Positions 3,075 through 40,623 of a stretch of 64,000 bases of DNA are shown piece after piece. Made by a program: the position numbers and the translations under genes. The stretch comes from Escherichia phage PECP20. Every line of letters starts with the position of its first letter. Within the stretch, counting starts at the first letter, position 1. The stretch is taken from the sequence record OQ873415.1; one strand, written 5' to 3'. Under the pieces are notes generated by a model, which had not been told where the DNA came from, made no database searches, and worked only from the letters and a program-made list of their open reading frames with translations.

Positions 3075-3466
3075 TACTTTTTAAAAGTTTTTTGCAAAAG
3101 TTCGATGATTTCGTCGACGTTGGTTTCATCTACGATACAATGGATTTTTGTTACACCTAAAGTTATACCTTCGTTAGTAGTTTGAGGCTTTACTAAATCT
3201 ACCTCAGTAAAGTATTTGAACTCGTCAGGATAAATCTCAAAATAAGTTCCAATTTCACCACCGGCAGAACATACAGTACCATCTTCCATAGTTACACTTA
3301 CTACGTTTGGCGTATCGCTATCATAATCAGGTTCCATTCCGTTTACAACAAAACTAGGCCCATGGAGTTCAATCAATTTTAACATCTTAGCGTTATTATG
3401 TGGTGCTTCTTGAACAAAGTCGTCTTTAAATAAAGGGTTAATGATATAAGATTTTCCGATTTCCAT
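3074..3466 (-). CDS. hypothetical protein (frd.3-like position)
   Basis: 130-aa ORF, 1-nt stop/start overlap with downstream ORF; early promoter upstream. Confidence 0.5.
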   Translation of the reverse strand: MEIGKSYIINPLFKDDFVQEAPHNNAKMLKLIELHGPSFVVNGMEPDYDSDTPNVVSVTMEDGTVCSAGGEIGTYFEIYPDEFKYFTEVDLVKPQTTNEGITLGVTKIHCIVDETNVDEIIELLQKTFKK

Positions 3467-3495
3467 TTTGATTTCCTCATGTTGTTGATAGGTCT

Positions 3496-3524
3496 ATACT
3501 AACACATCCATGGAAGAAGTAAAC
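3496..3524 (-). promoter_or_regulatory. Early promoter upstream of ORF 3074-3466
   Basis: Minus strand GTTTAC ...17 nt... TAGTAT; same gataggtctata start-region motif. Confidence 0.45.
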
Positions 3525-3555
3525 AACTTTTTCGGCAATTTACAGATACTCAAAA

Positions 3556-3573
3556 GGGAGACCGAAGTCTCCC
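3556..3573 (-). terminator. Rho-independent terminator after gene 32
   Basis: Minus strand GGGAGAC-UUCG-GUCUCCC followed by UUUUG, immediately after stop. Confidence 0.65.
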
Positions 3574-3579
3574 GATTTA

Positions 3580-4482
3580 TTATAGACCAGCTAACAGGTC
3601 ATCGAGGTCGCCATCATCAGAGGATGAGGTAGAGCTCATGAAGTCATCTTCAGTTTTTGCAGAACTAAAGGCTTCCATGTCTTTATCAAAATCGTCAAGG
3701 TCAGAAGCAACTTTATCTGCAACAGAAGCTGCTGCGGCTGCTGCACCACCAAGAGCGGCAGTACCAAGAACCTTAGCGAAAGATTCATTTAATTTTTCAA
3801 AGGATTTGAACTGGTCTTTAGCCGTCAAAGTAGTAAGGTCTACCATCTGGTCATATAGTTCTTTCTGGAATGCTTCGTCATTAATACGAGGAATTTCAGA
3901 TTGACCCAAGAATTTAGATTCGTCGTAGTTGCTAAAACCAGAAACCTGCTTAGCTTTCAGAACGAAGTTAGCACCTTCAAACGGACAAGTAACATCAACT
4001 GGAGTTTCACCCATTTCGGTATCAACTGCAATCATTGCATTGATTTTGTCCCAAATCTTTTTACCGAAACGATATTTAAATACTTTACCTTCGTTATCTG
4101 GAGCTTGAGGGTCTTTAACAACCAGAATATTAGCCCAATAAGAAGTTTTACGTTTCAGTTGAGAATATTCAGTTTTGTTGGTATTGTACAGGTCATTTTT
4201 ACTAATGTACTGACATACAGGACAAGAGTCGTAATCACCATGTGTAGAAGAGCAATTTTCAATATACCATTTACCATTTTTCTTGAAACCGTGGTTAACA
4301 AGAATTGCAAATGGTAGTGCATCATCAGTTTTTGCTGGCAAGAAACGAATTACCGCTTGACCATTACCTGATGCATCTAGCTTCAGCTTCCATTCGCCTT
4401 TATCTTCTGAAGAGAAACCTTTGTTACCGTTCAGTTTAGCCATTTGAGCAGCGAGGTCAGCAGTAGATTTACGTTTAAACAT
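3580..4482 (-). CDS. 32: Single-stranded DNA-binding protein gp32
   Basis: 300 aa; [23 protein letters not shown]... zinc-binding Cys/His cluster and acidic Ser/Asp-rich C-terminus as in T4 gp32. Confidence 0.95.
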
Positions 4483-4556
4483 TATATTTACCTTTATTTA
4501 AATTATTTAATTTATTTACAGTTGGTTGCTACGACACTTATACCTCGTAGCTGGTA
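4483..4556 (-). promoter_or_regulatory. Gene 32 translational operator: 5' hairpin/pseudoknot region plus A/U-rich (UUAAA/UAAA)n tract
   Basis: Minus-strand leader ...CCAGCUACGAGGUAUAAGUGUCGUAGCAACCAACUGUAAAUAAAUUAAAUAAUUUAAAUAAAGGUAAAUAUAAUG; stem GCUACGA/UCGUAGC (4528-4534 / 4545-4551). Confidence 0.6.
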
Positions 4557-4561
4557 TGATT

Positions 4562-4569
4562 TATTTATA
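4562..4569 (-). promoter_or_regulatory. Late-type promoter (TATAAATA on minus strand) upstream of gene 32
   Basis: Plus-strand tatttata = minus TATAAATA, ~80 nt upstream of gene 32 start. Confidence 0.5.
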
Positions 4570-4598
4570 AAGTAATTTTAACACACAAGAAATAAAGC

Positions 4599-5252
4599 TT
4601 AATACTTACATGATTTGATTGTTTCTATGAACAATTTCTTAGCAGCATTTCCATCGATTTGAAGTATTTTTCGATATGCCTTTAATTTGGTAGAATAATT
4701 TTGCCAGACTAAATTGTCGGTGAGTTCGTCGTGCTTATCTATAATATTCAAGAATGAATCCAACAACAAGAAGGTTTCAAATGAAATTATATTGCTTTGT
4801 AGCAATTTAAATATGTAGCTCGACTGAACTTTATTATTATAATCAAATATCTCTTGAAGCGCACTAACTTCCACTTTCTTACTGAAATAGTAGATGTTAC
4901 GTACATCTTCAGCAAACGTCTCCTTGGCTTGTTTGAGACGTCCAATATATTCCCTATAGAAAACTAATGCATCAGCGTCTGATATCTCACCAATCCACGC
5001 ATCTTGGTTAGCAACTAAGTTACTGATGAATATCAAGGTGAGTTCCTTTAACTTATATTTCTCTGCTAGTTTCTCAAAGAAATATTTATCTCGGCGTTTT
5101 TGATACGCATTATCCGAAACACGCATGCACCAGTTATATTTGATTACGTCATACCGACCATTAAAATGTTGTTTGCACATCAAGTATAGTTTGTATACCG
5201 ATTTTCCGTTAATATAACGTTCTCCGTCAGGAGGCATGCGTATTTTAATCAT
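4599..5252 (-). CDS. 59: Helicase loader gp59
   Basis: 217 aa, identical length to T4 gp59; position between 32 and 33. Confidence 0.85.
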   Translation of the reverse strand: MIKIRMPPDGERYINGKSVYKLYLMCKQHFNGRYDVIKYNWCMRVSDNAYQKRRDKYFFEKLAEKYKLKELTLIFISNLVANQDAWIGEISDADALVFYREYIGRLKQAKETFAEDVRNIYYFSKKVEVSALQEIFDYNNKVQSSYIFKLLQSNIISFETFLLLDSFLNIIDKHDELTDNLVWQNYSTKLKAYRKILQIDGNAAKKLFIETIKSCKY

Positions 5253-5587
5253 AATAAGAAATCTAACGTATTAGTTTTTTCGCCACGAGCAACTGATGGG
5301 CGAAGCATGTTTTCGTCAATTGCTTCGCTTGTAATTTTTTCAACAATTCCTGTAGGAATAAATTTAGCAAATTGTGTTTCTGGAATAGAATTTTCTTCCA
5401 AGAAAGCAGTTGTTGCTTCTAAATAAGACATACCAAATTGTTCAACCATGGATTCGATAATGAATCCGTTTTCTTGGCGGTCAAGCAATTTAGCGATATC
5501 ATCTTTATCGTGTTTTACTGCTAATTCTTGTTCAGATAAACCGGTCTCATCAACCGGTTTAATATCACTTAGTGAAAACTGTGTCAT
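5249..5587 (-). CDS. 33: Late transcription co-activator gp33
   Basis: 112 aa (T4 gp33 is 112 aa); acidic; ATGA overlap with gene 59. Confidence 0.8.
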   Translation of the reverse strand: MTQFSLSDIKPVDETGLSEQELAVKHDKDDIAKLLDRQENGFIIESMVEQFGMSYLEATTAFLEENSIPETQFAKFIPTGIVEKITSEAIDENMLRPSVARGEKTNTLDFLL

Positions 5588-6837: not shown

Positions 6838-6845
6838 TATAAATA
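6838..6845 (+). promoter_or_regulatory. Late promoter TATAAATA for gene 34
   Basis: Exact TATAAATA 35 nt upstream of ATG, followed by SD AAGAGGA. Confidence 0.7.
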
Positions 6846-11871: not shown

Positions 11872-11879
11872 TATAAATA
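11872..11879 (+). promoter_or_regulatory. Late promoter TATAAATA for gene 36
   Basis: Exact TATAAATA immediately after terminator hairpin and 27 nt upstream of gene 36 ATG. Confidence 0.7.
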
Positions 11880-16650: not shown

Positions 16651-16658
16651 TATAAATA
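16651..16658 (+). promoter_or_regulatory. Late promoter TATAAATA for holin gene t
   Basis: Exact TATAAATA 20 nt upstream of ATG 16678, SD GGGAGG. Confidence 0.7.
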
Positions 16659-40578: not shown

Positions 40579-40623
40579 AATTAACTCCTTTGTTGTTTAA
40601 TTACAGGTGTATTTATAACTTAA

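Follow-up and report, generated by a model that had tools for sequence, protein, structure and literature searches.

A probable gene 32 translational operator of RB69 type in the leader of a Mosigvirus gp32 mRNA

In the DNA analysed here (the window, a single stretch of 64,000 nucleotides), the gene 32 mRNA of an RB69-like (Mosigvirus) phage very probably carries the translational operator of that gene in its 5' leader. The element occupies positions 4483-4557 on the gene 32 sense strand and consists of an H-type pseudoknot followed by an A/U-rich tract that runs through the Shine-Dalgarno sequence as far as the AUG. The operator is already known, and the version described here is a one-base variant of the one studied experimentally in RB69; the finding is a further instance of a textbook autoregulatory element, in a phage closely related to the one where it was characterised. 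We found no later comparative survey of the element in the searchable literature. The identification is useful for annotation, as the pseudoknot hairpin is entered as a terminator in one or more deposited Mosigvirus genomes and Rfam gives no relevant match, either locally at E values up to 10 or over the whole window at the gathering score. Since Rfam appears to hold no gene 32 pseudoknot model, its silence says nothing against the assignment.

Architecture of the gene 32 leader

A spacer of 116 nt separates gene 59 from gene 32 on the minus strand. Read as RNA, 5' to 3', it runs ...UUAUAAAUAAAUC-AUACC-A-GCUACGA-GGUAU-AAGUG-UCGUAGC-AACCAACUGUAAAUAAAUUAAAUAAUUUAAAUAAAGGUAAAUAUA-AUG, and its parts are listed in Table 1. 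The initial annotation of this leader had recognized the hairpin GCUACGA...UCGUAGC, which is indeed a perfect 7-bp inverted repeat (4551-4545 / 4534-4528) and the core of the nested minimum free energy (MFE) structure. It had also invoked a pseudoknot, leaving stem 1 unidentified, and had suggested folding that allows for pseudoknots. A scan of the window by pseudoknot geometry finds a single H-type pseudoknot, in which AUACC (4557-4553) pairs with GGUAU (4544-4540) to form the missing stem. The range first given, 4483-4556, is thus right to within one base, omitting stem 1 base 4557.

The complete pseudoknot spans 30 nt (4557-4528), with a stem 1 of 5 bp, a loop 1 of 1 nt, a stem 2 of 7 bp and a loop 2 of 5 nt, dimensions that lie within the range taken for T4-type gene 32 operators (about 28-32 nt overall, with 4-5 bp in stem 1 and 3-7 nt in loop 2). 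Loop 1 in the NMR work of Du, Holland and Hoffman on the T2 pseudoknot is reportedly also 1 nt. Stem 1 is weak, at about -3 to -4 kcal/mol.

Table 1. Features of the gene 32 locus and related sites, in window coordinates; negative offsets are counted from the gene 32 AUG
Feature	Position	Strand	Remarks
Gene 59 (gp59, 217 aa)	4599..5252	-	upstream ORF
T4-type late-promoter box TATAAATA	4562..4569	-	4 nt upstream of stem 1
Stem 1, 5' arm AUACC	4553..4557	-	-75 to -71; pairs with GGUAU
Loop 1, single A	4552	-	invariant in 10/10 aligned pseudoknots
Stem 2, 5' arm GCUACGA	4545..4551	-	perfect inverted repeat with 4528-4534
Stem 1, 3' arm GGUAU	4540..4544	-	directly abuts stem 2; G(-61) = 4543
Loop 2, AAGUG	4535..4539	-	same letters in T4; 3-7 nt among lineages
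Stem 2, 3' arm UCGUAGC	4528..4534	-	ends at -46
A/U-rich tract	4483..4527	-	45 nt, -45 to -1; proposed site of cooperative gp32 binding
ACUGU motif (...AACCA-ACUGU-AAAU)	4518..4522	-	between pseudoknot and first UAAA unit
Six UAAA units	4518-4515, 4514-4511, 4509-4506, 4500-4497, 4496-4493, 4490-4487	-	
UUAAA units (two of the six)	4510-4506, 4501-4497	-	
Shine-Dalgarno AAGGU	4490..4494	-	-12 to -8, inside tract; read from sequence
Gene 32 (gp32, 300 aa)	3580..4482	-	AUG 4482-4480; proposed repressor and regulated gene
Intrinsic terminator GGGAGACUUCGGUCUCCC then UUUU	3556..3573	-	3' end of gene 32 transcription unit; terminator scan
Other TATAAATA copies	6838-6845, 11872-11879, 16651-16658	+	8-35 nt upstream of ORFs 6880, 11906, 16666; tail-fibre region
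Fifth TATAAATA copy	40610-40617	-	

We considered whether this structure could be a functionless chance hairpin in an AT-rich intergenic spacer. Inverted repeats of 7 bp are common in 64 kb, and the hairpin alone lies within chance; the nested fold of the leader has a z-score of -0.43 relative to shuffles, a value that does not discriminate because nested MFE folding cannot represent a pseudoknot. The pseudoknot geometry, in contrast, is not expected here. A strict scan for pseudoknots with 5 + 7 Watson-Crick base pairs finds one in the window, compared with an expectation of 0.23 for 128 kb of sequence shuffled by dinucleotides, and the probability of meeting such a structure by chance inside the 116-nt spacer is about 2e-4. 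A further point against chance is that the densest UAAA cluster of the window comes next. The question is settled by the comparison with other phages, which refutes a chance origin and leaves it next to impossible.

Covariation among gene 32 leaders

For this comparison, gene 32 loci were gathered from IMG/VR and from annotated phage genomes, and leaders were chosen solely by the motif CCAG-N5-AGG, so that pairing was not a criterion of selection. The alignment contains ten distinct pseudoknots from seven lineages, namely Mosigvirus (two), T4, T2, the Klebsiella phages PWKp18 (Marfavirus) and K65_evo7, EcS1 and the IMG/VR loci L016, L020 and L022. Standard base pairs are present in all 113 of the 113 cells examined; with shuffled partners the figure is 78.8 +/- 2.8%, and none of 500 shuffles reaches 100%. 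Changes on both sides are found in seven of the 12 pairs, three of five in stem 1 and four of seven in stem 2, and the covariation score of 0.607 compares with 0.210 +/- 0.040 in the shuffles (0/500 reach 0.607). When the 3' partners are slid by 1-3 columns, 22-52% of the cells are paired and at most one compensatory pair is seen. RNAalifold, which draws no pseudoknots, arrives at stem 2 on its own and marks four of its pairs as covarying. Both stems are therefore fully paired, with compensatory changes, across lineages whose gp32 proteins are only about 62-85% identical. The alignment to known operators that had been proposed as a check on the pseudoknot accordingly bears it out, with pairing 100% conserved relative to T4, T2 and five further lineages and compensatory changes in both stems.

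By the strict scan, a canonical pseudoknot is absent from the CC31-like and S16-like loci (L003-L015), from the Gaprivervirus UPEC07, Dhakavirus and Krischvirus leaders, and from those of RB43, Acj133, Aeromonas phage 31 and Proteus phiP4-3. Leaders of this kind were excluded from the covariation alignment.

A larger pseudoknot is found in the Acinetobacter T4-like phages PhT2 (L088) and phi1_092060 (L098) and in L029/L030, about 30-100 nt upstream of gene 32. It has a stem 1 of 8 bp, a loop 1 of 5 nt, a 4-nt junction, a stem 2 of 7 bp and a loop 2 of 9-13 nt. Stem 1 is CUCUUAUA/UAUAAGAG in one lineage and ACAAUGAA/UUCAUUGU in the other, so that all eight of its pairs differ between the two lineages with pairing kept, and stem 2 (GGUGUAC/GUACAUC vs GGUGUAG/CUACAUC) shows one compensatory change.

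The gene 32 locus and its protein

Many coliphages of the genus Mosigvirus, to which RB69 belongs, are 95-97% identical to the DNA around the locus, and on this identity we assign the window to that genus. The upstream 217-aa ORF matches both Pfam domains of gp59 (E 1e-50 and 1e-44), and the 300-aa ORF matches gp32 (PF08804, E 9.8e-61). In BLASTP comparisons the latter protein shows 93% identity to RB69 gp32 (278 residues aligned) and 83% to T4 gp32, and it matches the solved gp32 structures 8GME, 2ATQ, 2A1K and 1GPC, with PDB E values down to 1e-158. By these matches the ORF 3' of the operator is identified as a bona fide gp32. Within residues 1-180, three positions differ from RB69 gp32. The alignment shows the N-terminal MFKRKST, H64 and C77/C87/C90, along with the core and an acidic C-terminus; after T4 gp32, we take MFKRKST to be the cooperativity residues and H64, C77/C87/C90 the zinc ligands. 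The cognate gp32 is thus predicted to have both the N-terminal cooperativity domain and the Zn-containing core.

Two further features of the coding region were observed. At gp32 residues ~193-237 (window 3772-3904), where RB69 and T4 are the same, the protein carries a cluster of about 17 differences from RB69 gp32, the rest being almost identical to RB69; this stretch looks like a mosaic or recombination patch, judging from the protein alignment. The window's version of gp32 is common to about 97 deposited phages at 99% identity or more. In several other lineages (L007, L010, L011, L017-L019, L022, L026, L027, L029 and L087), gene 32 opens with a pair of in-frame AUGs spaced 6 nt (AUGUCNAUG, translated as MSMFKRK...), and the true gene 32 start and the operator-to-AUG distance are therefore ambiguous in those phages.

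Comparison with characterised operators

The closest relative of the element is that of RB69 (NC_004928), a phage of the same genus. Over the 81 positions that start one base 5' of stem 1 and run to the AUG, the two sequences agree at 80; the pseudoknots are the same base for base, and the 116-nt spacer between genes 59 and 32 is laid out in the same way, with a few further changes upstream, outside the operator. Because the A/U-rich tracts are equal in length, RB69 numbering transfers directly, such that -1 to -45 corresponds to 4483-4527 and G(-61) to 4543. The sole difference within the operator is at -19, where RB69 has C and the window has U (4501, minus strand). This U creates the second UUAAA unit of the tract. 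A small hairpin from U(-8) to A(-21) at the ribosome-binding site (RBS) has been proposed for RB69 (PMC535899), and in the window the substitution turns the C(-19)-G(-10) pair of this RB69-specific hairpin into a U-G wobble, weakening it. A megablast search with the 81 nt returned 150 Mosigvirus records, the best full-length matches being 98.8% identical. Because these best matches all carry one mismatch, U(-19) appears to be rare or absent among deposited genomes.

The RB69 operator has been studied directly. Borjac-Natour, Petrov & Karam (2004, PMC535899) showed autogenous repression by RB69 gp32 both in vivo and in vitro; their in vivo expression assays included RBG32Δop, a construct without the pseudoknot elements, and control is reported to be lost when a deletion takes such elements out. 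In the RB69 leader, the segment from A(-1) to A(-45) shows hypersensitivity to DMS and DEPC and no sensitivity to RNase V1, whereas the pseudoknot segment is RNase-V1-sensitive, and strong protection by RB69 gp32 extends from U(-14) to G(-61), covering pseudoknot and tract (PMC535899).

The T4 operator (pseudoknot from -67 to -40 followed by UUAAA repeats) shares the architecture and the order of its parts with the window. Its pseudoknot, UGCC-A-GCUAUGA-GGUA-AAGUG-UCAUAGC, has the same loop 1 (A), the same loop 2 (AAGUG) and a stem 2 of 7 bp, and is likewise followed by ACCAACUGU. It differs in having a stem 1 of 4 bp that includes a G-U pair (UGCC/GGUA), compared with 5 bp in the window, a U-A pair in stem 2 where the window has C-G, and a tract that is 6 nt shorter. 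In T4, moreover, the upstream neighbour is the homing-endonuclease gene segG, which overlaps the 5' arm; in the window, gene 59 and a TATAAATA box are directly upstream. The T2/T6 pseudoknot (NMR, 2TPK, cited in PMC3014915) is H-type with coaxially stacked stems, and its loop 1 of 1 nt and stems of 5 and 7 bp are sizes shared with the window. The T2 sequence, UGACC-A-GCUAUGA-GGUCA-UACAUCG-UCAUAGC, has stem 1 UGACC/GGUCA and a loop 2 of 7 nt (UACAUCG) in place of 5 nt, and the TATAAATA box is 17 nt rather than 4 nt upstream. Relative to T4 and T2, the window shows compensatory changes in both stems.

A more distant parallel is the translational operator of E. coli rpsO, where a pseudoknot is likewise bound by the encoded protein, S15 (PMC3014915). 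The two are not homologous, and they differ in design: in rpsO, pseudoknot and RBS overlap and the ribosome is trapped, whereas the pseudoknot described here lies 45 nt upstream and repression would proceed by cooperative spreading.

The A/U-rich tract and the ribosome-binding site

The second claim of the initial annotation, an A/U-rich stretch with UAAA/UUAAA repeats leading to the start codon, holds: the stretch is 45 nt long, above the minimum of 40 nt taken for operators of this type, with six UAAA units, two of them within UUAAA, and its composition of 26 A, 13 U, 3 C and 3 G amounts to 87% A+U. Mononucleotide shuffles contain 2.4 +/- 1.05 UAAA units (P ~0.001 for six). The tract is the densest UAAA cluster of the window: nowhere else in the 64 kb, both strands considered, do six or more TAAA fall within a 42-nt span. 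The AAGG of the Shine-Dalgarno sequence is kept in nearly all gene 32 leaders compared. Since the predicted pairing probability of the tract is 0.41, which is not especially low, we take 4527-4483 to be unstructured by analogy with the chemical and enzymatic probing of RB69.

The gene 59 stop region, UAUUAAGCUUUAUUU (4590-4604), is complementary at 13 of 15 positions to the Shine-Dalgarno region, AAAUAAAGGUAAAUA (4485-4499), in the minus-strand RNA, and on read-through transcripts this pairing could sequester the RBS. In phage phi25-307 there is a change on the Shine-Dalgarno side without compensation in the gene 59 stop region, and the complementarity may therefore be a low-complexity coincidence.

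A model for repression by gp32

In T4 and RB69, gp32 prefers single-stranded DNA; as free gp32 accumulates, it nucleates at the pseudoknot and extends cooperatively along the unstructured UUAAA/UAAA tract, so that the RBS is blocked (PMC535899, PMC3014915). We suggest that the gp32 of this phage binds and represses as in RB69, because the operators are identical at 80 of 81 positions and the N-terminal segment and core of the protein differ from those of RB69 gp32 at three residues. In this model, gp32 in excess over the available single-stranded DNA would bind the pseudoknot first and then polymerise cooperatively in the 3' direction along the 45-nt UAAA/UUAAA tract (4527-4483), so that it would come to cover the Shine-Dalgarno sequence (4494-4490) and the AUG (4482-4480) and exclude ribosomes. 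The self-repression architecture of T4/RB69 type that had been read from the letters of this leader is thereby supported, both by the identity with the RB69 operator and by the confirmation of gp32 as the downstream gene product.

The 5' end of the gene 32 transcript

A T4-type late-promoter box lies just upstream of the pseudoknot (Table 1). The box TATAAATA occurs five times in the window and is under-represented, 7.7 copies being expected. The three copies on the + strand are placed as would be expected of T4-type late promoters, and the record of phage SA79RD annotates the same box as a late promoter. In T4, the distance from the box downstream to the late transcript start is about one helical turn (PMC2988020). 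With TATAAATA at 4569-4562, this spacing predicts a late gene 32 mRNA start at about 4557-4555, which would fall at the 5' arm of stem 1 or 1-2 bases within it. A late transcript may thus start inside stem 1, with 3-4 bp left. A scan that covers sigma-70 promoters, and not the T4 late type relevant here, gave matches no commoner than in shuffles, and the minus strand of the spacer had none.

A similar arrangement is found in other lineages. TATAAATA lies 4-5 nt upstream of stem 1 in L020, L021 and L022, TATAAT lies 7-9 nt upstream in L016, L031 and K65, and in T4 RNase E cuts at -71, leaving the pseudoknot (-67 to -40) 5'-terminal (PMC3014915). In L091, too, a promoter -10-type element is immediately 5' of stem 1. 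In lineages with such an element, a monocistronic gene 32 mRNA would begin at the 5' arm of stem 1 or even within it. With a promoter -10 element (TATAAATA or TATAAT) or the T4 RNase E site always a few nucleotides 5' of stem 1, we infer that the pseudoknot is at or very near the 5' end of gene 32 mRNA.

This position invites a reading in which the pseudoknot serves only as a 5'-terminal stabiliser or processing landmark, protecting against RNase E, and the tract only as a translation-initiation region, with no autoregulation by gp32. T4 has no mRNA more stable than that of gene 32 (PMC3014915), and the T4-like phages RB49, RB43 and Acj133 are without the pseudoknot. RB69, however, whose operator differs by one base, does autoregulate, and its gp32 footprints both pseudoknot and tract (PMC535899), which makes a purely stabilising element very unlikely in the window. 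The two roles are not mutually exclusive, and a 5'-terminal structure that helps to confer the unusual stability of gene 32 mRNA is a plausible second role, compatible with that of operator.

The hairpin has also been read as a rho-independent terminator that ends gene 59 transcripts. It lies 47 nt past the gene 59 stop codon, and the SA79RD record (OL960576.1, L001 1650-1683) labels the homologous hairpin 'rho-independent terminator' (WebGeSTer). The bases that follow the stem (AACCAACUGUAAAUAAAUU; AACCAACUGUAAAU) nevertheless form no U-run, and a terminator scan of 3400-5400 makes no call at the hairpin, calling only the site after gene 32. Termination would leave the covariation of stem 1 with the hairpin loop unexplained, and in T4 the gene 32 mRNAs include polycistronic upstream transcripts that are processed by RNase E at -71 (PMC3014915). 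We therefore reject the terminator, which we regard as exceedingly improbable. Because no U-run follows the hairpin, the SA79RD label probably mistakes the gene 32 operator for a terminator.

A conserved ACUGU motif between pseudoknot and tract

The junction between the pseudoknot and the first UAAA unit contains the motif ACUGU. It is not mentioned in the operator literature consulted (PMC535899, PMC3014915). We consider it possible, though doubtful, that the conserved core of gene 32 leaders across T4-like phages is AACUGU(U/A)AA, in which ACUGU runs into the first UAAA/UUAAA unit, and not the pseudoknot. Were AACUGU(U/A)AA a sequence-specific determinant of gp32 nucleation or of mRNA processing, it would explain autoregulation of gene 32 in phages that have no pseudoknot.

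Across the window, AACTGTWAA is not enriched (five found, 2.7 expected), and it is therefore not a genome-wide motif. The RB49, RB43 and Acj133 leaders contain no copy of ACUGU. The motif was surveyed in the 80 nt upstream of gene 32 in loci L003-L031 and L083-L098. It is kept in 31 of 41 distinct gene 32 leaders, in most T4-like lineages and in the context AACUGU[U/A]AA, and 24 lineage representatives contain 30 copies, compared with 3.8 +/- 1.8 in dinucleotide shuffles. In these representatives AACUG and ACUGU are as widespread as UUAAA. Lineages without the pseudoknot (CC31-like, S16-like, L024) have 3-4 ACUGU copies spaced 10-13 nt apart, which fall in the 3' coding end of gene 59 in three different reading frames.
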